A program made the position numbers and the translations under genes. Below are positions 3,243 through 61,729 of a DNA stretch of 64,000 nt, in pieces. The DNA comes from Patescibacteria group bacterium (GTDB lineage: Bacteria; Patescibacteriota; Patescibacteriia; UBA9934), in assembly GCA_041660165.1 (NCBI GenBank), contig JBAZWW010000003.1:68352-132351 (forward strand), written 5' to 3'. Position 1 is the first letter of the stretch, and every line of letters starts with the position of its first letter. The notes under the pieces were generated by a model. It did not search any database. It was not told where the DNA came from and worked only from the letters and a program-made list of their open reading frames with translations.

Positions 3243-6200
3243 ATGCACAAATTTTACGGCAGTTTCACACAGCCTCTTTTCGCTAAACTTATCATAGTAT
3301 TTTTCTTTTTCGTATTTTCATTTTCTTCAATAGGTATTGCCCAGGCAACGGTTTATTTGCCGGGCGAAACGCTTGCTCCGGATTGTGCGCCGGGTGCTTC
3401 AAGTTGCGGTGTACTTCCTATCGGCGACGCGCATACGGGTTCCGGTGCACCTTCGCTTGTAAGCCCGAATACCGGCGCGCTCTACTTTGATACAGCGGGC
3501 GGTATTTTGTATTCGTACAACGGTACTTCATGGGTGAGCGTGGGAAGTGGAACGACAATAACCAGCTTGAATGGTCAGACGGGTGCCTCACAAACATTTG
3601 CAACGGGTACGTCAGGAGCTGACGTAAACTTCGTTTCTGCCGGAGATATCCACACGCTGAATATTCCAAGTGCCTCCGTGTTGAACCGCGGGCTTGTCAC
3701 TATTGGCGCGCAAACATTTGGCGGGGTGAAGACCTTTGCAGACGGACTCGTAATGAACGGAAACGTTGTTGCTCCAAGCGGAACAAACTACACAACAACC
3801 GGCACGCAAAATGACGTGGATCTTGGTACGGGCTCATTCTTCCGTTATACGGGCGCAGGAGTTGCGACCTTTACGGGTTTTGCGGGAGGAGCTGATGGTC
3901 GAATGGTCCGTGTCACAAACGCATCTTCATCAAATCTCACCATTCAGCATCAAAATACGGGATCTGTAGCTGCGAACAGAATTATCATCGAAACTGGGCT
4001 GGACGCGATCATCACGCCAAACTCTACGTTTGACATGCAGTATGACGCGAGTACTGCCCGTTGGCGTATTGCGGTGTTGCCAACCACCTCATCTCAAAGT
4101 TTTGCACAGGGCGGTAACGCTTTTGGTGGAGTAGCCACTATTGGAACCACGGATGCTAACGCTCTCAACATCATCAGCGGTGGGACAACACGTTTTACAC
4201 TTGCTGCCGGTGCCTCAACGCTCACGGGGTCTGGTTCCACATCACTCATTTCCACCGGCGCGCTCGCTCTTTCGTCGGGGACGGCCTCGACCATTGGCAT
4301 CACCACTGGCACAACGGGAGTGTTGACACTCGACTCCGGCACAACGGGTGCGGTAAACCTTGGGAACGGATCAAACTCGAAAATTATCACTATTGGCAAC
4401 ACTACCGGTACGACGGCCTTAAACTTGAACAGCGGTTCCGGAGGCATTTCGCTAGTCGGAAACACAACCGTTACGGGAAGTCATACGTTTGCGACGGGTA
4501 CGGGATTGACCACCATCAATTCAACCCAAATGACACTTGCCGGGAATGGGATGGTGATAGATATGACCGGCACAGGGACGCTTGGCCTCAACACTACAAC
4601 GGATAGACCAATCACAACGGGTACGGGACTGACCACTTTGTCCGGTGATACGGACGTGGGCGGTCACATGATTGTGGCGGGGAACTTTGCCACAACCAGG
4701 GGCGCAGATTATTCAACAACCGGTGTCCAGAATAACGTTAATCTTGGCGCGGGATCATTTATCCGTTTTACTGCCGCAGGGGACGCAACATTCACAGGTA
4801 TCCTTCCAGGAGTTGATGGTCAAGATCTCACGCTCATGAACGTGGCAGGAGCGGGTACACTGACGTTGGCAAATAACAGCTCATCATCAGTTGTGGCGAA
4901 TAGGATTATTACCGGTACCGGTGGAGATCTCAGCATTGCTCCGGATACAGCCGTGCTTCTTCAATATGAGCTAACCCCTTTAGGCGAATCCGAGTGGCAT
5001 GTTATTTCTCCGCCTTCAAGCGTGGCCGCTATCGCAACTGCCGCTTTTCTTCAAAATGGAAATTCTTTTGCGGGAACGGCAACTTTAGGAACGAATGACT
5101 TCTTTGGCTTAAATTTTGAAACGAATAACGTGACAGCATTGGCGCTTGATACTTCCGGGAACGGTACGCTGACGGGTGATCTGACGGTGACGGGCGGAGA
5201 CATTTCTACTCCGGCGGCAACAGCTTTGAACGTGAAGACCGGGACAACTGGTGCCCTGACGCTTGATTCGGGAACAACGGGTGCTATTAACATAGGCACT
5301 GGTGCCAATGAGAAAGTAATCACCATCGGGAACACAACCGGGGCTTCAGCCATTCATCTGGATGCTGGAACCGGCGGGCTTCATATCAATGCAAATACGA
5401 CATTCACAGATGGTAATGCCTTTAGTTCCGGCTCAGGGGTATTTTCTATCTTGGGTAACTTTGTCACCCCGAAGGGGACAGACTATGCTTTAACTGGTAC
5501 CCAGAATAACGTCGCTCTCGGTACGGGGATGTTGTTCCGTTTCACCGGAGTTGCCCCGGCGACTATTACTGGTATTGCCAATGGTGCGGACGGCAGGCAA
5601 ATCAGGATAACGAACGCCTCATCCTCAAATATATCCATCACCAATGAGGATTCCGGATCGTTAGTGGCGAATAGAGTCCTCACCGCGAATGGAACAACCG
5701 CTACGTTAAAACCGAACGGCTCTGTTGGTTTGTTGTATGACTCAGGATCACTACGCTGGCGCGTATTTAGCCTCCCCGTTGAGGATGTTGCCGTGGTGGC
5801 AGGCGGGAATACTTTGGGCGCGGTGTTGAACATAGGTACAGTGGACTCTTATGCGCTCAATCTTAAGACAAATAACGTTACTGCTTTAGCAATTGATACT
5901 TCAAGTAATGCAAACTTTACGGGAGATATCACGGTGACGGGAGGTGATATTGCTACACCAGCTACATCGGCATTAAATATTACGACTGGTACCACAGGCA
6001 TTCTCACTCTGGACTCTGGCAGTACCGGGGCCGTGAATCTTGGTACTGGGGCGAGTGCAAAAACAGTGACAGTTGGCAACACCACAACCACATCGACGTT
6101 GAACCTCCAGTCGGGAACCGGAAATATTAACTTACAAGTTGCGGGTACAAGCGCAATTGGCAACGTACAAATTGGCGCGGGCACGGGATCTGCCACGCCG

Positions 6201-9200
6201 GATCTTTTGGTGCTCGACATAAAAAATAATGATGGAACAGATCCTGCTGGCGGAATAAACGGTGCAAGCTACTACAATACAACGAGTAACAAGTTTCGTT
6301 GTTATGAAGGCGGGGGATGGAAGGATTGTGACACCACCGGCGGGACGACTACGTTGCAGTCCGCATATAACTCCGGCCAAACGATCACGACATCATCCGC
6401 GCATGACCTTGCGCTTACGCTCACGAGCGGAAATTTCACCGCGTCCGGTGCCGGTGCAGTCACATTAACGCCAACAGGTGCGTCAAGCTTTACGTCCGGT
6501 GGTGCGCTGACTTTGACTGGTGGTGCCGCCTCAACATGGGGAACTACAACCGGCAACCTTAACGTGCAGGTTGCGGGCACGGGGACAACGGGGAACGTAC
6601 AAATCGGCGCAGGCGGGGCGGGATCGGCCACGCCCGACTTCTTTGTTGTTGACACAAAGTCTGCGGTAAGCGGTTCGGGAGATCCGTTAGGCGGGACACC
6701 GGGCGCGAGTTATTACAATATTGCCAGCGATAAGTTCCGTTGTTATGAAGGTGCCGGGTGGAAAGATTGTGACACGGGTGGCGGAGTTGGCGCGCAAACG
6801 TTGAACGGCCAGGGCGGAGCATCACAAACGCTTGTTGTGGGCACAACCGGTACAGATTTCAACATTGTTTCTGCTCTCGATGTTCATACGTTCAATTTGC
6901 CTGACGCCTCTACCACCGCTCGCGGTCTGCTGACCACGGGCGTCCAAACGCTTGGCGGGGCAAAGACTTTCAATGACGATCTGTTGGTGAACGGCTTGAC
7001 CACCCTTGGCAATGCTACCGGTGACACCGTGACGGTAAATGGCTCAACCTTCACTTTTGCTGGCAATAGCACTGTTCTAGACATGACGGGAACCGGCGTG
7101 CTGAGTTTGAACACAGTGACAAATCGGCCAATTACCACCGGTACCGGACTCTTTACGGCAAGCGGCGCGGCAACAGTTGCGGGTACATTTTCTAACTCCG
7201 GAAATTACGTAACACCTAAGGGCACGGATTACACCACCACGGGATCACAAAACAATGTCAATCTCGGAACCGGCTCATTGATCCGCTATACCGGTATTTC
7301 CCAAGCAACATTTACCGGCTTGGCCGGTGGTACTGATGGTCGATTTATCCGTATTATTAATGCTTCATCGTCAGACCTCATCTTTACGAATCAGGACATT
7401 TCTTCGACAGACACAAATCGCATCATTACCACTACGGGTGGTGCTCTGACGATTGGTTCAGACGTTTCTATCAGTATGCAGTACGACTCCGGTGTTAGTC
7501 GTTGGCGAGTAATCATTCTACCGGTTACATCTGGTACTCTAGCTGACATCGCATTCATTCAGAATGGTAACGCCTTCGGTTCTGCGGCAAATCTTGGCAC
7601 TACAGATGCTTTTGCGCTCAATCTGAAGACAAACGGGGCGAATGCCTTAGTTCTTGATACCTCCGGCAATGGAGATCTGACCGGCGACTTTACCGTGACT
7701 GGTGGCGATGTCGTCACTCCGTCCGGTACGTCGCTTAACGTAACCGCTGGCACTACCGGCGTCTTGACGCTTGACTCCGGTTCTACGGGAGCAATCAATC
7801 TCGGTACCGGGGCAAATGCCAAAACAATCACGATCGGTAATACATCCGGTGCAACGGAGGTACATGTACTTTCCGGCTCGGGTAACTTTGATCTGACCGC
7901 GCCCAGTGCAACGTTCAAAACCGCCACAACCACAGACGACAAACTTGCGCTCGTTCCTCATACCGGCGCAGCTTCCTCTTTCACGGGATCAATTACTTCC
8001 GCAGATTTGACGGTGAGTGGAAAGACGTGGACTTTCCCAAACCTGACAGGCAACGTTCTGCTTGATACTTCAACTTGTCTTTCAACGGGCTCGATAACGT
8101 GTAATGCGGGAAACAATACCGGAGCAGCACTTTCGATTGGTACTTTAGACGCGAATGCGTTGGATCTTATGACTGGTGGCACTACCCGTTTCGCTGTTGC
8201 CGCTGCTTCTTCCACGCTCACCGGTACAGGTTCGACAACGCTTGCTTCCACCGGCGCGCTCGCTCTGTCATCTGCTGCGGCCTCGACCATAGGTATCACC
8301 ACAGGCACAACGGGTATCCTTACGCTTGATTCCGGAACAACGGGCGCAGTAAACCTTGGTACGGGTGCAAGTTCGAAAACAATCACCATTGGCAACACAA
8401 CAGGTACGACTACGCTGAATCTGAACAGCGGGTCAGGCGGGGTTGTGATGGGTGGCAACGCTTCAGTTTCTGGCACTAATACTTTTACAACCGGTACCGG
8501 CACAACCACCATCAATTCAACCGCCATCACGCTTGCCGGCGCAAGTGCGGTTATTGATTTGTCGAGTGGAACTCTTGGGATCAATACCGCAACAAATCAG
8601 GCGGTCACCTTTGGTTCCGGGTTGGTTACTATGAATGGAGGCCTTACGGTTACGGGAGCAATTTCCGCTTCTGACGGTTTTTCTACGCCAAAGGGTACGG
8701 ACTACTCCACTACAGGCATTACCAATGACGTTAATTTTGGAAATGGTTCACTATTCCGTTATACCGGAGTGGGTTCGGCAACAATCACCGGTTTTGCCGG
8801 TGGTTCTGATGGCAAATACGTCCGCTTCATGAATGCTTCCACATTCGGCCTCACTATTGATAATGAGTCTGTCAGTTCCATTGCGGCCAATAGAGTCATT
8901 ACCGGAACGGGTAGCGCTCTTACTATTCCGGCGGATGGAACTTTTTGTGCGCAATACGACATCACCGCTACACGGTGGCGTTTAGGATGTACCCCAGCGA
9001 ACGCGAGTACAATTAGTTCTTTTGGATTCATTCAGGGAGGAAATGCTTTTGCCGCCACCGCTACTCTTGGTACAACGGATGCGAACGCTTTGAACCTTCT
9101 GACGGGTGGTGCAACAAGGTTTGCGGTTGCTGCTGGCACACCTACGCTCACGGGTACAGGCTCGACCATTCATACGTCAACAGGGACAATGACACTTTCC

Positions 9201-11333
9201 TCTGCGGCCGGTTCAAATCTGACCGTTGATTCCGGAACAACAGGATCGGTTTTCCTGGGAACAGGCATAGCAGCAAAGACGATTACTATCGGAAATGGAG
9301 CGGATGACACGTTCTCGCTTAACTCCTCGGCTCTTGTTGTCTCAACGGCTGGAGCATTGACGGGTGTGGCTTCGCTTGACACCGTCGCAACATCAGCAAC
9401 CGCCTTTACCTTCGCCGGTGCCGGAGCTATTTCTTCAACAACATCATCTGCCATGACGATCGATTCCGGTTCAACGGGTGACGTGAACCTTGGTACTGGC
9501 GGTACGGCAAAAACGGTGAATGTAGGTAACGTAACGGGAGGTACGACATTGAACTTGAAATCAGGGACAGGCGGTATTTTGATGACGGTTGACAGCACTG
9601 CGTCAAGCGGCCAGGTACGTATTGGCAACAGCGCAACCGCCACGCCGGATTTATTAGTACTCGATAACGGAACGGCAGACCCAACCGGAGTGAATGGTGG
9701 GATGTATTACTCGACGGCCACAAACAAGTTCCGTTGTTATGAAAATGGCGCGTGGGCAAATTGCATAGGCGGTGGAACGAGCTCGACATCAAAATTCGTT
9801 GTGAAGGGTGCAGATGAAAATGTTCCAACAGGGAACACGCTCCAAACTGATGATGCACTGACGTTTGCGGTGGGAGCAAGCGAAACATGGGTGTTCCAAT
9901 TCAATCTCATGGTTGATAACTTGAGTAGCACGGCACCTGATTGGCAAGCAGCAATTTTGGGCGCATCGGGTTGGACCTGTAACTTCATCATGCACGGCGA
10001 GGAACCAGGCAGCTCTGCCTTCCCACAGTCAGCGGGAACCGATTGTGACAACGTGCCTACCGCGGTAGCAGACGGCACAATTGCTTCCAACGGTGGAATT
10101 CCATTTGAGGTAGTGTTGCAGGGAAGTATTACAACAACGAGCAGTGGATCAGTTACGCTGGAATGGGCTCCAAACACCAGCGGAAGCCTAACGGTGAAAG
10201 CGGGAAGCTTTGTTATCGCGCAGAAAGTTGGCGGTGCTGACTTGGCTGAAGTGTATTACACGAGGGATTCTGGAATGAGACCCGGAGATGTGGTGAGCAT
10301 TGATGGATCTATAGCGTCAGGGGTTAAGAAATCAACCGTTGCGCGTGATCCTAAGGTGATTGGCATTATTTCAACAAAACCGGGGTTGATCCTTGGCGAC
10401 GCAGAAGTGAACACGGAAGATTTCCCGGTTTTTGTAGCCCTGTCCGGAAGAGTGCCGGTGAGGGTAGTTACAGAAAATGGTTCGATTGGAGTTGGCGATT
10501 ACCTCACACCCGCTTCAGAACCGGGCACGGCCATGAAATCCGATGGGACAGGCCCTGTTATTGGACAGGCCATGTCTGCGTATGACGGCGAGGGGATTGG
10601 CACGGTTCTTGCCTTCGTTAAGAGTTTTGACTTGGGAGATGAGAGGCTGGTGCTTCTAGGAGACATCTCGCCAAAGCCGAAGGCCGACGGATCAGACAAT
10701 GGTCTTTCCACGTTCGTTGCCATGCTTCAGGCTGAGACGGCGCATGACCCTGTGATAATCATTGGCGAGAAGATTGCAGGCGGAAAGGACTTCCTTACAG
10801 ACTTTGTCTCCGCTCGCGTTACAGCAATCCGCGGATACTTTGATGAAGTGTTCGCAAAGAAAGTGCACACGGAACAGCTTTGTGTGAAGAAGGCGGATGG
10901 TACGGAGGCGTGTTTTGACGGAGACCAATTGCAACAGGCAATCAATGGGGAAGGGCCTCTAGCGAATTTCTCGGCGCCATCGAATAGCCCGGCACCTGCT
11001 CCGGCACCGGAGACCTTGACGTCGATGACCGATGTGATTGCGCCGACAGAAACAGCAACGCCGGAAATCATAGCCCTTCCTGCTGACGTGTCTTCTGACA
11101 CGGTACCAAATGAAGCAACGACAGATACTTCGGCTCCTGTAGTGGAGACGGTTCCAATTGTGGACGCCCCGGTTTCCGCCGAGGAACCGGTGAGCGAGCC
11201 TGTTGTCATTGAAGCGCCTGCGGGTGTTCCTGACATTGTGCCAGCGCCCTTGGACGTAGCCCCTGTGAGTGAGCCGGCACCAGCGCCAGAATCTGCACCA
11301 GAATCGGCTCCTGCTCCTGACCCAGCTCCTTAA
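3243..11333 (+). CDS. giant (2696 aa) secreted Thr/Gly-rich repetitive cell-surface protein
   Basis: N-terminal signal/TM; five copies of a module [21 protein letters not shown]...TITG.A.GADGR..R..NASSS...ANRIITGTG; three copies of a YYN...[15 protein letters not shown] module; a near-identical roughly 330-bp internal duplication (about 4200-4450 and 8210-8460); a globular C-terminal domain; an APAPAP Pro-rich tail. Confidence 0.8.
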
Positions 11334-38433: not shown

Positions 38434-40320
38434 ATGCTCCCTCTTCTCAAACGCGCCTTTTCAGGTTTTCTTTTGCTGGTCACGCTCCTTCTTGGCGTCC
38501 CTTTTACGGCTTTTGCCTCGAGTATTCCTTATTCAGCTCTACGCATAACCACCACCGGCGGGGGGAATATCACTTTGGCGCCGGGGGAGGTGAAGAATAT
38601 TGCCGTTTCTTTTCAAAACAAGGGTTCGCAGACGTGGAAAAATGATGGCAACGGCTACATTTCGCTTTATACCTACGGCCCAAAGTACCGGGCGAGTGTT
38701 TTTGACCCAGGTACCTGGCTCACGCCCTCGCAGGTGAAGCGGATGGGGGAGGAAGGCGTGAAGCCCGGCGCCACGGGCACATTTTTGTTCAGCTTGAAAG
38801 CGCCAAAGACCCTTGGCACATACAAAGAAACTTTCGCCCTGGCGTCTGAGAATATCAATTGGGTTACGGGAGGTGACTTCACTTTGAATATCACCGTGCA
38901 AGCGTCGAGTACTGCCAATGCGCCAGCTGTAGACCCCCGCCCGGACGATCCGGTCGGACGGGCTTCCTCACGTCAGGGTCTGGTTCCCGTTTCCACCGTC
39001 GCTCCCGATGCCTCTATTGGCTACTCAGCCAGTCTGGTCACCCAAACCGCTTCCAAAATGAAGGTCCTGGCTAAGAAAACAATCTCATTTTCGGCCGTTA
39101 TTCAGAACACGGGAACAAAGACATGGAAGAACATTGGGCTCTCGTCTTCAGCCATGAACATTGCTTCTGGGTCGAGTGATTTTAGGAACAGCACATGGTC
39201 TGGCAATCAGGTTGCCCTCCTCTCGCAAACAGTGAAGCCTGGCGCTACGGCCACGGTTCAGTTTTTCTTCACCTCGCCCAGCGTCAACGGAACACATACC
39301 GCGAAGTTTCAGATTACTGCAGACGGCATCAGTATTCCTGACAGCTTCGTGACCATTCCCGTTGAAGTAACCGGCGGATCGGCTGAAGCACTCGACGCCC
39401 CATTAGAAAGCGGGGTTTCCAACCCCTCCTCCGTGCCGGCCGCACTGATAACTGAACCAACTATCCGCGTGGGCGTGTTGATTGTGGACGAGGAGACAAA
39501 AGACGAGGCGGTCATCACCTCATTTGAAAGCGATTTTGATTTAATTGATACAGATGGCACGATCCTTGGTTCTTATCCAAGAGGGAAAGAGATCCGGACG
39601 GCATGGGATGGAGCGAATTATCTCTATAACGACGGTGCACACAAAAAGTCCTCGAAACCGCTCCGTTTCGTTCCAAAGACGCCAAACGCAGTCATGACCA
39701 TTACAAATTTTGATCGTCGGCTCACTCGCGGAACCTCGTTCGCAAACAACACTTTTAGAAACGTACTCGAACTCCGCTACAACACGCCGAATAATCGCAC
39801 TTGGGTTATAAATGAACTCCCGCTCGAATATTATTTACGAGGATTGGCTGAAACGTCTGATTCCTCGCCCGTTGAATTTCAGAAAGCGTTGTTAACCGCG
39901 GCCAGGACATACGCTTTTTATCACTGGACGCACAGCACTAAGCACAGAGCCGAAGGATTCCACGTAGACGCTTACCAAGACCAGGTGTACTGGGGCTATG
40001 ACCAGGAGGCCAGGACTCCGCGTATTACCGGAGGCGTGCAGGCCACGCGCGGTCAGATTGTCACGTACAACGGTGATACCGCCGTCACCTCATTCTTTTC
40101 TCGCTCGGATGGCAGAACTCGCAACTGGTCAGAAGTTTGGGGCGGAAACGTTCCGTATGCCAAATCCGTCCCCGTGCCGTGTGACGTTGGCAAGACTTTG
40201 TGGGGCCACGGCGTAGGCATGTCCGCTTCCGGCGCTCTCTGCATGGCCAAAGACGGTCAGGATTGGCAATCCATTCTCAAATATTTCTACACCGGCGTTG
40301 ATATTTCACAACGCTGGTAA
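38434..40320 (+). CDS. SpoIID/LytB-domain cell-wall protein with N-terminal Ig-like repeats
   Basis: Signal peptide; two TWKN-containing Ig-like repeats; C-terminal SpoIID/LytB-like region (NELPLEYYLRG...YWGYDQE...LWGHGVGMS). Confidence 0.7.
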   Translation: MLPLLKRAFSGFLLLVTLLLGVPFTAFASSIPYSALRITTTGGGNITLAPGEVKNIAVSFQNKGSQTWKNDGNGYISLYTYGPKYRASVFDPGTWLTPSQVKRMGEEGVKPGATGTFLFSLKAPKTLGTYKETFALASENINWVTGGDFTLNITVQASSTANAPAVDPRPDDPVGRASSRQGLVPVSTVAPDASIGYSASLVTQTASKMKVLAKKTISFSAVIQNTGTKTWKNIGLSSSAMNIASGSSDFRNSTWSGNQVALLSQTVKPGATATVQFFFTSPSVNGTHTAKFQITADGISIPDSFVTIPVEVTGGSAEALDAPLESGVSNPSSVPAALITEPTIRVGVLIVDEETKDEAVITSFESDFDLIDTDGTILGSYPRGKEIRTAWDGANYLYNDGAHKKSSKPLRFVPKTPNAVMTITNFDRRLTRGTSFANNTFRNVLELRYNTPNNRTWVINELPLEYYLRGLAETSDSSPVEFQKALLTAARTYAFYHWTHSTKHRAEGFHVDAYQDQVYWGYDQEARTPRITGGVQATRGQIVTYNGDTAVTSFFSRSDGRTRNWSEVWGGNVPYAKSVPVPCDVGKTLWGHGVGMSASGALCMAKDGQDWQSILKYFYTGVDISQRW

Positions 40321-47700: not shown

Positions 47701-48981
47701 ATGCCTCGCGTTAAACTGACCGAATTTCGGGCGAAGAAGCTCATCCTCGGCAACACCTACGCCGGTGTTTCTTTTTGTGGTGTGGTGCGTTCTCCCTCTT
47801 TCCAAGAGGGCGTCAGTACGGGTGGGCGTTCCCCCTCTTTCCAAGAGGGTGTCAGGACGGATGGGCGCTCCCCCTCTTTCCAAGAGGGGGCTACGGGGGA
47901 GTCGGTGGTGCGTTGGGTGGTCAAAGTCGATCAAGGTATCAAAAAGCGCTTCAAGCAAGGCCTCGTCAAAGTGAATATCTCGGCGGACGAGATTTTGAGC
48001 GCTGTCGAGCCTTGGAAGGCAAAGGGCTTCTCGCAATTCATTGCCGAGCCGTTTGTCGAGCACTCGGCGAACGAGGAACAGTATCTTTCGCTTGAGCGCG
48101 TGCGTGAGGGGGTTCGCATTTTGCATACCGCCGAGGGCGGAGTTGATATTGAGGCGCATCCGGAAGCTGTCCGATCATATGTCGTCGAAAATGCGGGCGA
48201 GATTTCATTGATCGCTAAAGAGACGAAGATTCCGCAGGCATTCCTTGAACAGTTAATTTCAACTTTTAACGATAAGATGTTTGCATTTCTTGAGATCAAT
48301 CCGCTTGTGATCAAGGGTGATCGAGTCTATTTGCTCGACGCTGCCGTGCTCGTGGACAGCGCAGGAATCTTCTTTGTGCACGGCGCGTGGACGGCGAGTG
48401 ATCTTGTTCTGCCCACCGCCAAGCATCCGGCTGAAGCGCGGGTCGAGGAATTAGCGAAAACCACTCCCGCCTCGCTCAAATTGTCCGTGCTGAATCCTGA
48501 CGGAGCATTGTTTTTCTTGTTGTCTGGCGGTGGGGGATCAATCGTGATCGCAGATACCGTCATGAACAAAAGCGGGGTTTCAAACCCCGCCCACGGCGCG
48601 GGCCAACTGATCGGCAACTACGGCGAGTACAGCGGAGGGCCCACGCGCGAAGAGACGTTTTTGTACACTCGCGAGGTACTCGGTTTGTTGCTCGGATCGA
48701 GCGCGCCGAAGAAGGCGCTCATAATTGCCGGGGGAGTGGCAAACTTTACGGATGTGAAGCGGACGTTTGCAGGCATCATTGACGCGTTGACCGAGCGCTC
48801 AGCCGAACTCCGTAAGCAGGGCGTTAAGGTGTTTGTGCGCCGGGGCGGACCGAATGAACAGGCGGGACTGGCCATGATGCGTGAGTTCCTGACCGCCGAG
48901 GGATTGCTCGGTGCCGTTTATGGATCAGAGGCGGTGATGACTAAGGCGGTAGAAGACGCCATAGCTTTTGTAAAAGTATGA
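47701..48981 (+). CDS. ATP-grasp subunit resembling ATP-citrate lyase beta / succinyl-CoA synthetase beta (AclB-like)
   Basis: ATP-grasp plus CoA-ligase fold; near the N-terminus carries three tandem 13-aa in-frame repeats (SPSFQEGxxTxGR) from element A, and a family B hairpin at 48572-48590. Confidence 0.65.
   Translation: MPRVKLTEFRAKKLILGNTYAGVSFCGVVRSPSFQEGVSTGGRSPSFQEGVRTDGRSPSFQEGATGESVVRWVVKVDQGIKKRFKQGLVKVNISADEILSAVEPWKAKGFSQFIAEPFVEHSANEEQYLSLERVREGVRILHTAEGGVDIEAHPEAVRSYVVENAGEISLIAKETKIPQAFLEQLISTFNDKMFAFLEINPLVIKGDRVYLLDAAVLVDSAGIFFVHGAWTASDLVLPTAKHPAEARVEELAKTTPASLKLSVLNPDGALFFLLSGGGGSIVIADTVMNKSGVSNPAHGAGQLIGNYGEYSGGPTREETFLYTREVLGLLLGSSAPKKALIIAGGVANFTDVKRTFAGIIDALTERSAELRKQGVKVFVRRGGPNEQAGLAMMREFLTAEGLLGAVYGSEAVMTKAVEDAIAFVKV
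47784..47903. repeat. three tandem 39-bp copies of palindromic element A (GGTGCGTT-CCCCCTCTTTCCAAGAGGGGG-CTACGGGGGAGTC)
   Basis: Direct reading of the sequence; in-frame within the AclB-like CDS. Confidence 0.85.
48572..48590. repeat. palindromic hairpin GCGGGGTT-tca-AACCCCGC (family B, copy 2, in-frame in the AclB-like gene)
   Basis: Identical 19-mer, read in a different frame (KSGVSNPAHG). Confidence 0.6.
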
Positions 48982-50874: not shown

Positions 50875-51942
50875 TTAGCGCGAGATCTCGAGAATCCCCG
50901 TTGGCACCCCGAGCGTCTCAAGCATTTGCTTCGCCTTCTCCTCGCTGGCCGGCATCATTTGGCGTTTTTGGAGGTAGAGCGGTTCGAATTTGAGCGTCAG
51001 TTTGTCAGCCTCGACGGTTAAGCGGACAGCCAGCCCGCTTTTTGTAGCTTCCGAGAAATCTTGATCGAACAAGAAATTGCCGAGCGAATAGACGATCGGG
51101 ACATTTTTGTATGTTTCGACGGTTTCAATGACATGCGGATGTCCGCCAATGACGGCGTCTGCGCCAGCGTCAACAAATTGATGCCCCGCAAAGATCTGTG
51201 AGCTGGACGGATTGTGCTGATACTCCACGCCCCAGTGAGGCATAACGATCACGAAATTGCCGGCGGATTTTTCAAGTTTGATGGCCTCGACAATGCCAGC
51301 GGTTGTTTCGTTAAAAGCGTGGTAGCCAATAAAGGCAAAAGTTATTCCGTTCACGGTTTTGTGGGCTACAAACTTTCCGCCTTCCCACGCATCGCCAAAC
51401 GGAGTCATGCCGGCGTTCGTGATTGTTGTCCTGGTGAGCTCCGCGGTTGCCCGGCCATAATCATCAGCATGATTGTTCGACAATGAAAGCAAGTCGAATC
51501 CTTGGGTGGCGAGCATTGAAACATTGCCGGGCGTGGTGTCAAAGTTCATGACGTTTGTTCCTTCGATGTTTTCTTTTTCGCGTACTGTTCCCTCAAAATT
51601 ACCGATAAGCAGGTCACTATTTGAAAGCAAATCTCCAACCTTCGCAAACGGATATTCGGTGCCGTAAAGTTTTATGTATTGCTCCACGTTTCTTGCGAGC
51701 ATAATGTCGCCCACGAATTCAAGAGTCGTGCTCGAGTCGTTCGGTGAGGGCACGATATCCGCCGTAGGGGTCGATCCATGTATCGACCCCGCAGTGACGA
51801 TGCGATCTCCCGCCATGGTCAGATGCGCCCTTCGAGAGATTTCGATGGACGAATTTGCTTTAGAAAACGGCGATACCACAAGAAATCCGATGAGAACGGT
51901 GAGTCCAAGCGCGGTTAACAGTATGGCGAGTTTTGGGGTCAT
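50875..51942 (-). CDS. CapA/PGA_cap-family metallophosphatase-like protein
   Basis: N-terminal TM; motifs FVGDIM, NFEG, NNHADDYG, GGHPHV; carries in-frame element C at 51767-51790. Confidence 0.7.
   Translation of the reverse strand: MTPKLAILLTALGLTVLIGFLVVSPFSKANSSIEISRRAHLTMAGDRIVTAGSIHGSTPTADIVPSPNDSSTTLEFVGDIMLARNVEQYIKLYGTEYPFAKVGDLLSNSDLLIGNFEGTVREKENIEGTNVMNFDTTPGNVSMLATQGFDLLSLSNNHADDYGRATAELTRTTITNAGMTPFGDAWEGGKFVAHKTVNGITFAFIGYHAFNETTAGIVEAIKLEKSAGNFVIVMPHWGVEYQHNPSSSQIFAGHQFVDAGADAVIGGHPHVIETVETYKNVPIVYSLGNFLFDQDFSEATKSGLAVRLTVEADKLTLKFEPLYLQKRQMMPASEEKAKQMLETLGVPTGILEISR
51767..51790. repeat. palindromic hairpin GGGGTCGAT-ccatgt-ATCGACCCC (family C, copy 1)
   Basis: Perfect 9-bp stem; encodes GSIHGSTPTA on the minus strand. 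Confidence 0.7.
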
Positions 51943-53357: not shown

Positions 53358-53410
53358 ATTGTTGATGTAGGGGCCGATTTATATATCGGCCCAGATTATG
53401 ATTATTTCAT

Positions 53411-55261
53411 TTACGTAACGAACGGTAACGTGATCCCCTTAGCCTTGGCCAACCAATAGCCAAGCGCCCCCAAACTGGTAGTGAGTAACCCGCCTCCCAC
53501 CCACGGAATTTGTTTCGTGGGCGGGGGAGCGATGAGATTGTGATTCCTCTCCCCGCTAGGGGAGGAAGTAGGTAGGGGGGTTGTCATATCTGCCGTAGGG
53601 GTCGATCCATGTATCGACCCCGTAAGCACGCTCATCCCCTTCGTCTCCGTTATGGCGAGCGTCCACGCTCCGCTCTTCACTCGCGCCACGCCCGTCACTG
53701 CAATACGGTCGCCGAAGGCCAGGTCAGCAAAGTTGATGGCCACATGCGGAGCAGATGCTATGGCAAGGGTGTCGCCATTTTCGAGTTCCACCGTTACTCC
53801 GCCTTTGGCCATGTCCGTGACCGAGCCTTCCAGACTGAAGTATCCGCCTTGGACAGCTTCGTCGAGTGAGTTAAGCGAGTCTGGCGCCAGCGCGTCCTGG
53901 CCGGTTGTTTTAATGTCCAACCGTTTGCTTATCTTGAGACGCACATAGCCGTCTTTTTGTTGAACCACGCCGGTAACCTGCACGTGTGCCATGTATTTCA
54001 GCTTTGGCCAGTCGGCTTTGTTGAAATACACTTCAAGTCCATTTAGATACATCAGCTGTTTGCCGAATACTCCCGGCAGGCCAACCACTACGCCATCAAC
54101 GGTCACAATTTCTCCATCCGGGACATCGCCGAGTTCTGAGACGTCGAGTACCGTCAGGGTGGTTCCTCTCCCCGTGAGGGGAGAGGCTAGGTGAGGGGTA
54201 GCGGTGGCCGGGGGCAGGGGGGAGGCTACGCTGTCCGCCACCGTTGTTGCGAGCTCCAGCCGAACAGGGCTTGGGGCGGGGGCATCAGGGTTAGTTCCTT
54301 GAGCTTGGTCTTGAACGGCCGGATCAGGGTTGATAACGGCAGGAGTGTTGATTGTCGTCTCATATGTTGTATTCGTTGTGTCGTAGGGGTCGATCCATGT
54401 ATCGACCCTCGTATTAATGGCGAGCGGAGTGGGATCAGATTCAATCCACGTTCCGTCGGGTTGTTTAGCGAGTGATTTTCCTTTTTTCGGCGCCGTTTTG
54501 CCGGTGTACGATATCGCGTCAATCGTTGCTCCGGTTCCATCGAACAGGAAGATTGAGTCGCCATCGTTATTGAGTTTGCCCTTCGGGTTTTGTAGGACAA
54601 AGAAGGCGTGCGCCGGCAGAATCTGATCGGGCAACGGAGTTTTACTTGTCGTCGCATCTTTAACCGTCCACCCGCCGAGAGAGATTTCGTCTTCGGTTGT
54701 GTTGAGAAGCTCAATCCATTCCACACCATCGGCCGGATCAGATACGAATTCATTGATGAGGACGGAGCCAGTGGGATACGGGATTGGCCCGGGTGCCACG
54801 GGCGGTACCACGGGCGCGGTTGATGGCGCGGGCGTTAGGGTGGTCAATGGGGGTGCCGTAGGGGTCGATCCATGTATCGACCCCGCCTCGGTAGGCGTGA
54901 TGATCGGCGCGGGCGCCTCAATCGGCAATGGCTCGATGACCGTGATTGGCGCAACGGGTTCTGGTTCAGGTTCCGGTGCAACTGGTTCCGGTGCCGGCAA
55001 TGGGGCCGTCTGCACCGGACACAGCAGGCACGGATCCCCGGCGTCATCCCCTCCTTGTGAGGGAGGCTCGCCCGTAGGTTGCGAAGTTACGCCCGAGGAG
55101 GGCAGAGGGATGGAGGGGGCCAAGGGGGTGGCTACGTCTCCACCGGTCCCAGCGCTTTCGACGGTTTCGACGATCGCGGTTTCGGATGCGTCTTCTGCTC
55201 TCGCGGGTAGAGGAGACACAAAGGGCAAGAGGGTGAGGATTCCCAAGAGTCCATAGTACAT
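53411..55261 (-). CDS. secreted lamin-tail-domain (LTD) protein, Pro/Thr-rich, with a C-terminal membrane anchor
   Basis: LTD pattern VLINEFVSDPADGVEWIELLNTTEDEISLGGWTVKD...LNNDGDSIFLFD; signal peptide; C-terminal TM; contains three family C and two family D hairpin elements in-frame. Confidence 0.65.
   Translation of the reverse strand: MYYGLLGILTLLPFVSPLPARAEDASETAIVETVESAGTGGDVATPLAPSIPLPSSGVTSQPTGEPPSQGGDDAGDPCLLCPVQTAPLPAPEPVAPEPEPEPVAPITVIEPLPIEAPAPIITPTEAGSIHGSTPTAPPLTTLTPAPSTAPVVPPVAPGPIPYPTGSVLINEFVSDPADGVEWIELLNTTEDEISLGGWTVKDATTSKTPLPDQILPAHAFFVLQNPKGKLNNDGDSIFLFDGTGATIDAISYTGKTAPKKGKSLAKQPDGTWIESDPTPLAINTRVDTWIDPYDTTNTTYETTINTPAVINPDPAVQDQAQGTNPDAPAPSPVRLELATTVADSVASPLPPATATPHLASPLTGRGTTLTVLDVSELGDVPDGEIVTVDGVVVGLPGVFGKQLMYLNGLEVYFNKADWPKLKYMAHVQVTGVVQQKDGYVRLKISKRLDIKTTGQDALAPDSLNSLDEAVQGGYFSLEGSVTDMAKGGVTVELENGDTLAIASAPHVAINFADLAFGDRIAVTGVARVKSGAWTLAITETKGMSVLTGSIHGSTPTADMTTPLPTSSPSGERNHNLIAPPPTKQIPWVGGGLLTTSLGALGYWLAKAKGITLPFVT
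53544..53566. repeat. palindromic hairpin TTCCTCTCCCC-gct-AGGGGAGGAA (family D, copy 1)
   Basis: Near-perfect stem; encodes PSGERN in the LTD protein. Confidence 0.55.
53598..53621. repeat. family C hairpin, copy 2
   Basis: GGGGTCGATCCATGTATCGACCCC, identical to copy 1. Confidence 0.7.
54165..54186. repeat. palindromic hairpin CCTCTCCCC-gtg-AGGGGAGAGG (family D, copy 2)
   Basis: Perfect 9-bp stem; encodes ASPLTGRG in the LTD protein. Confidence 0.6.
54386..54408. repeat. family C hairpin, copy 3
   Basis: GGGGTCGATCCATGTATCGACCC. Confidence 0.7.
54861..54884. repeat. family C hairpin, copy 4
   Basis: GGGGTCGATCCATGTATCGACCCC. Confidence 0.7.
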
Positions 55262-60171: not shown

Positions 60172-60751
60172 ACCAGTTTTTGTCCCGCAAGTTGAACCGC
60201 GTGAGAGCGTCGAGGAACAACTCGAAAACCGTAAAGAGGAGGATCTGAACCTCCCGCACTGGAATTGGTGCGCTATCTGTTGTGTCCGCATGATCGTTCT
60301 CGGTCTCGGGTTCGAGGTTCCGGACATGATCGACATGTATAACACGGCCACCGAGAAATACGGTGTCTACAGGCTCGTCGACGGGCGGATTATCGGCGCG
60401 TATCACCGTGAGCTAGCAAGCTATGTAAAGGGCGAGTTCGGCCTCAAGGCCCGCGCTCTGCGTCGGCAATCGACTGACAACGTCGCGAGGTGGATCAGCC
60501 GAGGCTATTACTTCATCGCCTCGGTCAGCTCAGACATCCGTAAGACCGGCGCCGAGGTTCCAATCCGGCAGAACGGCCACCTCGTGCTCGTGTATGACGT
60601 CCTTGAGACATCCGAGGGACGATTCTTCATTCTCCACAACTCAGCGGGGTTTTCTCGAACGAACACCCAGTCTGAAGTCCTTGTCTCTGAAAACCGCTTC
60701 GCGCAGTGCTTCTCAGGGAACGGCCTCATCATTTCTGGCGATCATTCGTGA
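60164..60751 (+). CDS. hypothetical protein, possibly a papain-fold (C39-like) cysteine peptidase
   Basis: NWCAICCVRMIVLG (Cys) and NGHLVLVYD (His) spacing; start at MPKPVF. Confidence 0.4.
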   Translation: MPKPVFVPQVEPRESVEEQLENRKEEDLNLPHWNWCAICCVRMIVLGLGFEVPDMIDMYNTATEKYGVYRLVDGRIIGAYHRELASYVKGEFGLKARALRRQSTDNVARWISRGYYFIASVSSDIRKTGAEVPIRQNGHLVLVYDVLETSEGRFFILHNSAGFSRTNTQSEVLVSENRFAQCFSGNGLIISGDHS

Positions 60752-60781: not shown

Positions 60782-61729
60782 ATGACCAAGAAACGCCTTG
60801 CCATTTTAACTGGCGGGACAAGCGCTGAGCGTGACATTGCTCTGGCGTCCGCAAAAACAGTCGCTGATCTGCTTGCCGAACGGTATGACATAACCAAGTT
60901 CGATTTTCCAAGTGAGATTGACGCATTCCTAGCGCAACGAGATACCTTCGATGTCGCAATCCCCATCTTCCACGGTAAGGGCGGGGAAGACGGAACCGTG
61001 CAGGGCTTCTTGAAAACGCTCGGCGTGCCATTTCTATTCTCGGACGTCACCGCACATGCCATTGGCATGGACAAGACCTTGGCGAAAACCGTTGTGTCTA
61101 CCGTCGGTCTTCATACGCCGAGCTCGATCGTTCTGACTCGTGTTGAGTTCCTTCAGGGTGGCTCCCCCTCTTTCCAAGAGGGGGCCAGGGGGAGTCTCGG
61201 GATGGTCAGGGTGGTCAAGCCTCTGGATTCCGGCAGTACCCTCGGCATCACCATCGTCCGCTCTTCCAACGACCTACAGTCAGCCCTCGAAAACGCTTTT
61301 AAGCATTCCGATAAAGTGCTCATTGAGGATTTCATTGGAGGCGACGAATTCACCGTGGCTGTGATCGACGAACATGGCGAATCAATCGCCTTGCCCGTGA
61401 TTCAAATCGTCTCGCCGAACGGGATATACGATCACTCCGCCAAGTACGGCCCACAGCCAGCCGAGAAACTTTGCCCGGCGCCGATTAGCGAAGATCTCAC
61501 TTTACGCCTTCAAGAATCCGCCGTCACCGCGCACAAAGCCATCGGCGCCAGGCATTTGTCGCGGACAGATTTCATCGTTGACCGAGAGGGGACAATTTGG
61601 TTCCTTGAAATCAACACCATTCCCGGCCAATCCGTCTTATTTCCAAAAGCCGTAAAAGCATCAGGCCGTGATTTTGCAGAGATATTTGCCGACTGGATTG
61701 AGTCTGTCTACCTTGCCAAATCCTCCTGA
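60782..61729 (+). CDS. ddl: D-alanine--D-alanine ligase
   Basis: Ddl N-terminus RLAILTGGTSAERDIALASAK, ATP-grasp motifs, EINTIPG; carries a 39-bp in-frame insertion of element A (encoding GGSPSFQEGARGS). Confidence 0.9.
   Translation: MTKKRLAILTGGTSAERDIALASAKTVADLLAERYDITKFDFPSEIDAFLAQRDTFDVAIPIFHGKGGEDGTVQGFLKTLGVPFLFSDVTAHAIGMDKTLAKTVVSTVGLHTPSSIVLTRVEFLQGGSPSFQEGARGSLGMVRVVKPLDSGSTLGITIVRSSNDLQSALENAFKHSDKVLIEDFIGGDEFTVAVIDEHGESIALPVIQIVSPNGIYDHSAKYGPQPAEKLCPAPISEDLTLRLQESAVTAHKAIGARHLSRTDFIVDREGTIWFLEINTIPGQSVLFPKAVKASGRDFAEIFADWIESVYLAKSS
61157..61196. repeat. palindromic element A inserted in-frame in ddl
   Basis: GGTGGCTCCCCCTCTTTCCAAGAGGGGGCCAGGGGGAGTC. Confidence 0.85.

Follow-up and report, generated by a model that had tools for sequence, protein, structure and literature searches.

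Most work on repetitive extragenic palindromic (REP) elements and the REP-associated tyrosine transposases (RAYTs) has dealt with Proteobacteria and has treated the elements as repeats outside genes. The present study concerns a 64-kb window from a Patescibacteria group bacterium (the whole stretch of 64,000 nucleotides analysed), in which the gene for a 616-residue surface protein with a lamin tail domain (LTD) holds three hairpins of one sequence family (family C), two of another (family D) and a sixth, decayed D-like copy. We regard it as likely that these hairpins are REP-type elements, that is, short GTAG-headed palindromes that belong together with a RAYT (a Y1/HUH tyrosine transposase) and that lie in frame in disordered linkers. 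The published definition of a REP asks for three things, GT(A/G)G at the head, palindromic sequence and a middle that is non-complementary (PMC2817692), and passages of PMC2817692 and PMC3733652 name GTAG as the tag defining the main REP super-family. The element would then represent a REP type situated mostly inside the genes of a small, gene-dense, uncultured bacterium, where surface proteins, core enzymes and also its own transposase gain segments of about ten residues from it.

The closest described system is that of the GTAG REPs and their RAYTs (Nunvar et al. 2010, PMC2817692; Di Nocera et al. 2013, PMC3733652). In both settings, the element is a GTAG-headed palindrome of 22–30 nt whose loop is non-complementary; each genome has several sequence families, with sub-families differing by complementary stem changes; copies are situated beside the 3′ ends of open reading frames (ORFs); and the same hairpin is found physically with RAYT-like genes in inverted pairs. 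Distinct from the described system, about 84% of the copies found here are inside ORFs and not extragenic, the RAYT-like genes hold REPs in their own frame at two conserved loops and not on their flanks alone, and the host lineage is Patescibacteria; no RAYT/REP homologues were reported outside the proteobacterial lineages studied (PMC2817692). Passages of PMC3733652 also describe GTAG REPs with stems of 5–13 bp and, in Opitutus terrae and others, intragenic copies that give 'REP-decorated' proteins and may occupy flexible linkers or loops, a location that had thus already been suggested there. As in the present case, a single REP in these proteins makes up about ten residues in frame, several insertions per ORF are possible, and the hosts include replication and repair proteins (here the DNA polymerase III delta-prime subunit, UvrC and ParB); unlike here, the intragenic copies of those genomes are a minority, according to the same passages. 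A literature search on palindromic elements in the candidate phyla radiation (CPR) gave nothing relevant, and the words Patescibacteria and CPR have no occurrence in PMC12306157.

Rickettsia palindromic elements (RPEs) offer a further parallel, in that selfish palindromes are tolerated in frame in a small, compact genome and the inserted peptides lie in surface loops. RPE-1-type elements are specific to Rickettsia and about 100–150 bp in length. Passages of PMC3733652 have them as longer palindromic insertions, and RPE-4 and RPE-6 as short but tagged with CGTC, not GTAG. The elements here, 22–33 nt long and GTAG-tagged, have no sequence relationship to RPEs and are not counted among them. With REP doublets (REPINs) and bacterial interspersed mosaic elements (BIMEs) they have in common the inverted pairs (seen in the related metagenome contig L078) and regular clusters, namely three 39-nt units at 47778–47903 of the window and 118-nt spaced units in L081; the copies within the LTD gene, by contrast, are singletons in direct orientation, not head-to-head doublets. 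The whole element being one short hairpin, it is no MITE (a miniature transposable element with inverted repeats) either.

Hairpin families in the lamin tail protein gene

Within the gene, the family C motif (GGGGTCGATCCATGTATCGACCCC) occurs at 53598, 54386 (one mismatch) and 54861, with a further copy at 51767 in the neighbouring PGA_cap gene; its layout on the plus strand is GGGGTCGAT-CCATGT-ATCGACCCC, and shuffled sequence contained 0 matches to it. The family D motif (CCTCTCCCC-N4-GGGGAGRRG) is found at 53546 and 54165, as compared to 0.01 copies expected. Altogether, the 1.85-kb gene contains 5 of the 17 family hairpins of the window where about 0.5 would be expected, a significant enrichment that upholds the proposal, made earlier from a sequence-only reading of this DNA, of the gene as a hotspot for such elements. 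The same reading had described a 616-residue LTD protein with five in-frame hairpins, three of family C and two of family D, all located in linkers. Motif counts, Pfam and folding confirm the former, and the alignment of orthologues and the structure model agree on the latter; that reading had missed the GTAG head as well as the connection with a RAYT transposase.

All five copies of family C in the window (Table 1) carry the GTAG head. The heptamer GTAGGGG has nine occurrences in the window, six of them between 51.7 and 54.9 kb, and of these six, five form the head of a family C hairpin. Family D is headed by CTAG or CTAC in the window and by GTAG in two orthologous loci (L005 and L006), which gives this family the REP head only in part. 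With stems of 9 bp and loops of 4–6 nt, the elements are short imperfect palindromes as REPs are. Folding energies of C1, C2, C3, D1 and D2 (−13 to −21 kcal/mol) compare with a median of −7.6 for 40-nt windows, and C3, D1 and C1 rank among the mRNA's five most stable 40-nt windows; the weaker D0 folds with about −9 to −12 kcal/mol.

C1 and C3 both read GSIHGSTPT, and the middle copy C2 is in a different frame and reads RVDTWIDPY. Elsewhere, family C is read in a third sense frame (GRHMGRPL) and in antisense (GVDPCIDP), and intergenic copies occur as well. Because family C is read in two frames here and in three frames plus antisense elsewhere, and is also present between genes, it is a repeat at the level of DNA and not of peptide. 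C1 and C3 constitute identical direct repeats of 32 nt, spaced 1263 nt (421 codons) apart in the same frame.

Every element lies outside the predicted beta domains (residues 167–275, 371–452 and 475–549), in segments with a predicted local distance difference test score (pLDDT) below 50 of an AlphaFold model that is of low confidence overall (mean pLDDT 43.7) and that served for domain limits only, not for fold searches. The same low-confidence model shows a helix at residues 593–607 and has about half of the 616-residue protein as unstructured linker. The elements account for about 57 of the approximately 304 linker residues, and otherwise one partial GTAGGTAGGGGGG remnant was noticed, which lends little weight to the earlier proposal that the linkers themselves were built from such elements.

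Table 1. Features of the gene, its hairpin elements and the corresponding sites in the alignment of the window gene with its six orthologues (positions in the window unless given as alignment column)
Feature	Position	Strand	Description
616-aa surface-protein ORF	53411..55261	-	signal peptide, linker, LTD, linker, two beta domains, linker, C-terminal membrane helix
Lamin tail domain, aa 163-253	54503..54775	-	Pfam PF00932, E=1.7e-17, 64.2 bits
Two beta-rich domains, aa 371-549	53615..54151	-	secondary structure of AF2 model (low confidence)
C3, family C	54858..54884	+	GTAG head, 9-bp stem, 6-nt loop; minus-strand reading GSIHGSTPT (aa 126-134); -19.1 kcal/mol
C2, family C	54383..54409	+	different frame, RVDTWIDPY (aa 285-292)
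C1, family C	53595..53621	+	reading GSIHGSTPT (aa 547-555)
D1, family D	54165..54190	-	sense strand CTAG + CCTCTCCCC-TCAC-GGGGAGAGG; encodes ASPLTGRG (aa 359-366)
D2, family D	53544..53567	-	bulged 10-bp hairpin; encodes SSPSGERN (aa 566-573)
D0, decayed D-like	55048..55064 (approximate)	-	5-6 bp stem; encodes EPPSQGG
Degenerate family C hairpin, GTAG head	53367..53392	+	19 nt past stop codon
Fourth intact family C copy	51764..51790	+	in frame, GSIHGSTPT, N-terminal linker of PGA_cap gene
Site C2	column ~455		C-type in window and L002; D-type in L003; unrelated 11-bp hairpin in L005; absent in L001
Site D1	column ~536		strong hairpin in 6/7
Site C1	column ~737		C-type in window and L001 (identical); GCGCGG-type in L003 and L005; GGGTCGATG remnant only in L002
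Site D2	column ~754		hairpin in 5/7; decayed in L006; GTAG head kept in L005 and L006

The protein has an exact counterpart in NCBI MFA5945861.1 ('lamin tail domain-containing protein, Patescibacteria group bacterium'; recorded as P0080). Its LTD, at 64.2 bits as compared to the gathering threshold of 34.3 bits, belongs to PF00932 and is the best-conserved block in the alignment of orthologues. At the position of the two beta domains, precomputed Pfam annotation of more distant homologues places the OB-fold PF01336. Shorter versions of the gene have been called, by JGI with 462 aa (start V155) and in another JGI record with 437 aa, but NCBI and the orthologues favour 616 aa, and we consider this call correct because the signal-like N-terminal sequence and the hydrophobic C-terminal helix are both conserved in the orthologues. 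It seems that the gene callers were thrown off by the hairpin-rich N-terminal linker, and hairpins of this kind account for peculiar low-complexity insertions and for conflicting gene calls in the annotation of Patescibacteria. The most stable local mRNA structure of all (−20 to −23 kcal/mol; CCCCGCCCACG...CGTGGGTGGG) is found at 53495–53526, just ahead of the membrane helix, where it encodes a motif conserved at the protein level, PPPTKQIPWVGGG. L001, L003 and L006 have a comparable hairpin, and the structure could be a domesticated old element or a chance effect of Pro/Gly codons.

Association with RAYT-like genes and genomic distribution

The connection to a transposase was obtained from loci that had first been retrieved through the hairpin motif alone and on which a hidden Markov model (HMM) of RAYT homologues was then run. 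Matches were ORFs situated a few hundred bp at most from the hairpin in six loci (L078, L085, L076, L117, L119 and L020). The best NCBIfam assignment of all six is NF047646, 'REP-associated tyrosine transposase' (E 1.5e-9 to 5.8e-21); they score 38–75 bits, under the cutoff of 80, because in-frame inserts split the match. In L078, the sequence ACCGTAGGGGTCGATCCATGTATCGACCCCG agrees with the window's family C copies in 29 of 30 positions and is accompanied by a second, inverted copy, both of them in frame inside the RAYT-like ORF. A RAYT-like gene carrying the same REPs in inverted arrangement, as is characteristic of REPs, is thus found for family C as a family through L078, whose gene contains the exact family C motif of the window, and the situation is similar in the other five loci, with near-identical hairpins adjoining RAYT-like genes in other taxa. 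The RAYT-like ORFs (L078:4750-5400, L085:809-1336, L076:422-991, L119:258-911 and L020:3719-4276) hold their own REP hairpins in frame, with two conserved places being used, one behind the 'FGxV' strand and the other just behind the HUH motif 'MPNHIHGI'; GVDPCIDP and GSIHGSTPT are the examples from L078. L020 (Faecousia) has eight GTAG hairpins in and around its RAYT-like gene.

Five further proteins (P0082–P0086) pass NF047646 with 80.2–87.7 bits and have the HUH motif as 'HIH' or 'HVH'. The full-length RAYT P0082 (82.2 bits) is encoded about 5 kb from the orthologous LTD locus of L006/L067, and a remnant exists at the syntenic place in L005. P0082 (L067:4001-4501, in the genome of L006) lies between Pribosyltran and SPOUT_MTase genes; the remnant is a degraded RAYT frame (L005:5498-6001), and the syntenic place in the window genome (L066) has DUF559 and other genes, not a RAYT. 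A 4-residue insertion in P0082, 'AGFQ', makes a GCGGGGTTTCAACCCCGC hairpin. The gene is flanked and penetrated by GCGGGGTTTMAACCCCGC hairpins, a third family that is also present in the window at 39407, 47435 and 48572. An additional symmetrical family, GTAG-GGGAGGGTC-N3-GACCCTCCC-CTAC, is in frame in related contigs (L139:1471-1505, L088:188-212), which brings the GTAG hairpin families of the lineage to at least four or five.

Across the lineage, 49 family hairpins were counted in about 180 kb, and 41 of them (84%) are inside ORFs (of at least 120 aa), as compared to a coding fraction of 0.82. The location is hence mostly not extragenic: the share of elements inside ORFs is shown to be about what coding density leads one to expect, and both surface and housekeeping proteins carry them, at loops, linkers and termini. 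Related hairpins of the window are in frame in the genes of a D-Ala-D-Ala ligase (Ddl), an ATP-citrate-lyase-like, an O-antigen-ligase-like and the PGA_cap protein, and the related contigs have family C copies in frame in TruB, DNA polymerase III delta-prime, ParB, RsmB/F methyltransferase, UvrC, LeuRS and a membrane protein. The suggestion of the sequence-only reading that the linkers of a surface protein tolerate such elements stands as regards their confinement to linkers, but tolerance is not special to surface proteins, given that housekeeping enzymes hold the same elements. The window-type variant of family C was identified in eight other metagenome contigs, in different genes.

Searching metagenomes for GGGTCGAYRCATGGRTCGACCC yielded 111 stretches, in which CTAC, the GTAG complement, is nearly always 3′ of the sense-oriented motif. 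A scan of a genome collection for GTAGGGGTCGAT-N6-ATCGACCCC returned 58 loci, nearly all from Oscillospiraceae or Clostridia gut metagenome-assembled genomes, with the motif lying between genes and often symmetrical (GTAG...CTAC). The intergenic GTAGGGGTCGAT-GCCCAC-ATCGACCCC(TAC) hairpins of L008–L065 have the same head and stem as the Patescibacteria family; that a REP stem is common to different phyla is unexplained.

The hairpin of the D-Ala-D-Ala ligase gene (60782–61729) is located at 61164–61184 (CCCCCTCTTTCCAAGAGGGGG) and read as SPSFQEGA. In the alignment with E. coli DdlB, a stretch of the same length corresponds to this segment, and the element therefore replaces sequence without a net gain in length. 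The three tandem 39-nt units mentioned above, each with a CCCTCTTTCCAAGAGGG-type hairpin, are in frame at the N-terminus (residues 26–64) of the ATP-citrate-lyase-like gene (Citrate_synth_N and Citrate_bind), and either they are a BIME-like cluster inside the ORF or the true start codon is further downstream.

Sites and sequences among orthologues

Six syntenic orthologues were available, L001 with 72% identity and L002–L006 with 47–54%, all with Peptidase_C39_2 and TMEM43 upstream and small ORFs and PGA_cap downstream. Comparison of the sites by codon-threaded alignment and a folding scan revealed strong hairpins at the same four alignment columns in 4–6 of the 7 orthologues, with sequences, and even families, that differ (Table 1). 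The presence of hairpins at the same sites in orthologues of about 50% identity implies that the four main sites are old. The passages of PMC3733652 drawn on here contain no site conservation across 50%-identity orthologues with change of family.

The individual elements differ in their history. The copy of L002 at site C2 occupies the same codon position as the window copy, and L001, the closest orthologue, is without one; C3 is absent from all six orthologues. Presence/absence behaviour is restricted to C2 and C3, plus an extra copy in L002, whereas C1, D1 and D2 are as long as the matching segment of the other orthologues and so show no such difference. The earlier description of the elements as insertions accordingly holds for C2 and C3, not for C1, D1 and D2. 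Target-site duplications were not visible at the C2/C3 boundaries in the codon alignment. At the D0 site, L002 has an intact 7-bp hairpin (EPPSEGGG). The position past the stop codon, degenerate in the window, has intact family C hairpins in L002, L003 and L005, and L002 and L005 also carry a hairpin at the linker position of the PGA_cap copy (51764..51790); the pattern of the four sites is repeated at both places. A family C copy extends the PGA_cap ORF of L002 C-terminally (…EIQR-GSTHGSTPTTELQ*; L002:14921-14942), as if a REP situated past the stop had been absorbed into the reading frame. The number of elements varies from 0 to 6 among orthologues, loss or decay having left L006 without any intact copy and L004 with one. 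A second N-terminal LTD (two Pfam stretches) occurs in P0002, P0003 and P0005 and is absent in the window protein (54900–55190 compared), P0004 and P0006, from which domain gain or loss in the N-terminal linker region follows.

At the nucleotide level, four-fold third positions are only 0.32–0.46 identical between the divergent orthologues, near saturation; the 22-nt hairpins are nevertheless identical in L002 and L005. Stem pairs change in compensatory manner between clades (GGGTCGAT/ATCGACCC as compared to GGGTCGAC/GTCGACCC, and CCCTCTCCAC/GTGGAGAGGG as compared to CCCCCTCCAC/GTGGAGGGGG), and 16 aligned D-type hairpins have double changes at 6 of 9 pairs. Copies in one genome all share that genome's variant. 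From these comparisons, the hairpins appear to be constrained or homogenised at the nucleotide level, with some lineages having lost them.

To account for this pattern, copies could have arisen by RAYT-mediated cleavage and joining of single-strand DNA, and only those keeping the frame open in tolerant segments would have survived, the linker half of the protein presenting a large tolerant target. In sense orientation, family C has no stop codon in any frame, and in antisense the GTAG head leads to TAG in one frame. A site once holding a REP would tend to remain a REP site, with the resident copy homogenised to, or replaced by, the current family variant of that genome; such replacement or homogenisation would explain conserved position together with genome-specific sequence. 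The encoded segments of 9–11 residues, rich in Ser/Thr/Pro/Gly or of the Pro...Gly type, are probably near-neutral linker filler. Quite tentatively, and with the odds against it in our own estimate, we propose that the REPs of this lineage might not be mainly extragenic parasites and might instead be long-term residents of specific in-frame protein sites, including those in the RAYT, kept until proteins have diverged to about 50% identity while their sequence is repeatedly overwritten to the current REP family. Overwriting at kept sites, if true, would mean RAYT-driven replacement or gene conversion at resident REPs, or else selection for a hairpin at domain boundaries, and site persistence with sequence turnover would provide a concrete system in which to study the copying and homogenisation of REPs. 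Intragenic GTAG REPs as such are a known kind of element; the setting here is unusually coding-rich, and the persistence of sites with sequence switching is unexplained.

Alternative explanations and allele comparison

Several observations weigh against a REP identity of the hairpins. Classical REPs are extragenic and those described here are not, and all five family C copies of the window are found within 3.2 kb, unlike the dispersed pattern of a genome-wide repeat. The 64-kb window has no RAYT by tblastn or HMM, and P0082, the RAYT nearest to an orthologous locus, is flanked by the GCGGGGTTTMAACCCCGC family and not by C or D. The RAYT-like ORF of L078 may be without the catalytic tyrosine, judging from its FHDR ('WQKKFHDRIVR') at the place where relatives have YYEH ('WQRNYYEHIIR'). 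Family D is tied to no RAYT and its heads in the window are CTAG/CTAC, not GTAG. Finally, hairpins of differing sequence at the same site are an undocumented behaviour for REPs and could reflect host-level selection for a hairpin instead. A solved-structure search with the RAYT-like ORF, to place its catalytic tyrosine, returned no match. A weak RAYT match at 60389–60529 is antisense to an apparently real 270-aa ORF and was dropped as noise.

Host selection, taken as a full alternative, would have the hairpins as RNA or DNA structural signals at domain boundaries, with roles possible in ribosome pausing for co-translational folding or export, RNase processing, mRNA stabilisation, or as nucleoid or RNA-binding-protein sites, and with the likeness to REPs secondary, through co-option. 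It would readily accommodate the four columns with strong hairpins in 4–6 of 7 orthologues, where column ~455 has three unrelated hairpins and column ~737 exchanges C-type for GCGCGG-type, as well as the compensatory stem changes, conservation in excess of coding need, and the post-stop hairpin in four genomes. Intragenic family C is also oriented in sense at about 12 independent sites as compared to 1 in antisense, but the TAG stop in the antisense GTAG head is responsible for part of this bias. What makes such a role improbable in our assessment is that these elements also turn up in unrelated genes, in three frames, in catalytic domains (TruB_N, DNA_pol3_delta2) and in intergenic DNA, and that every copy is lost or decayed in some orthologues, L006 and L004 being the extreme cases. 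An Rfam scan found four tRNAs only and no family matching the hairpins. Sense-strand mismatches show no excess of G-U over A-C (1 as compared to 4), a count that is uninformative as a test of RNA structure. Selection on the peptide, for instance for a Ser/Thr/Pro-rich glycosylation or spacer motif with incidental palindromy, would fit the recurrence of GSIHGSTPT in several proteins and its linker-like composition. It is effectively refuted by the differing reading frames, the same DNA giving RVDTWIDPY, GRHMGRPL and GVDPCIDP elsewhere and being intergenic too; nor would it account for every third codon position being fixed or for perfect 9–10 bp stems.

The gene might alternatively be a hypervariable contingency locus, its repeats driving frequent length polymorphism and recombination, in line with the fast-evolving, possibly hypervariable surface protein envisaged in the sequence-only reading. 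Recombination between the same-frame repeats C1 and C3 would delete in frame, and among orthologues the elements number 0–6 and the N-terminal LTD is present or absent; linkers are unalignable between species at about 50% identity, and to that extent fast evolution is borne out. Hypervariability is not. L066, the only other assembly of the organism and thus a very small strain sample, shows 100.000% identity over 20,590 nt; the members of the 90% protein cluster do not differ from one another; and no close alleles (72%–100% identity) were found in a collection of 5.8 billion proteins. The sites are stable across deep divergence, and the gene shows neither a tandem repeat tract nor a reverse transcriptase nor a template/variable repeat pair. 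We consider a contingency locus very unlikely. Identity of the gene across strains together with conservation of the hairpin segments in distant homologues had been named beforehand as evidence against fast evolution of the gene, and half of this is indeed found, in that the hairpins of distant orthologues are conserved in position. REP-type identity, as the preferred interpretation, was further separated from a CRISPR array (regular spacing is absent in the gene), from intrinsic terminators (the hairpins are intragenic and without a T-run) and from an assembly artefact (an independent assembly and the orthologues agree), all of which were rejected.

Elsewhere in the window, a 2696-aa ORF (3243–11333) contains internal repeats of 300 nt (4140/8136) and of about 70–105 nt (6239/6680/9696) and probably encodes a giant repetitive surface protein.

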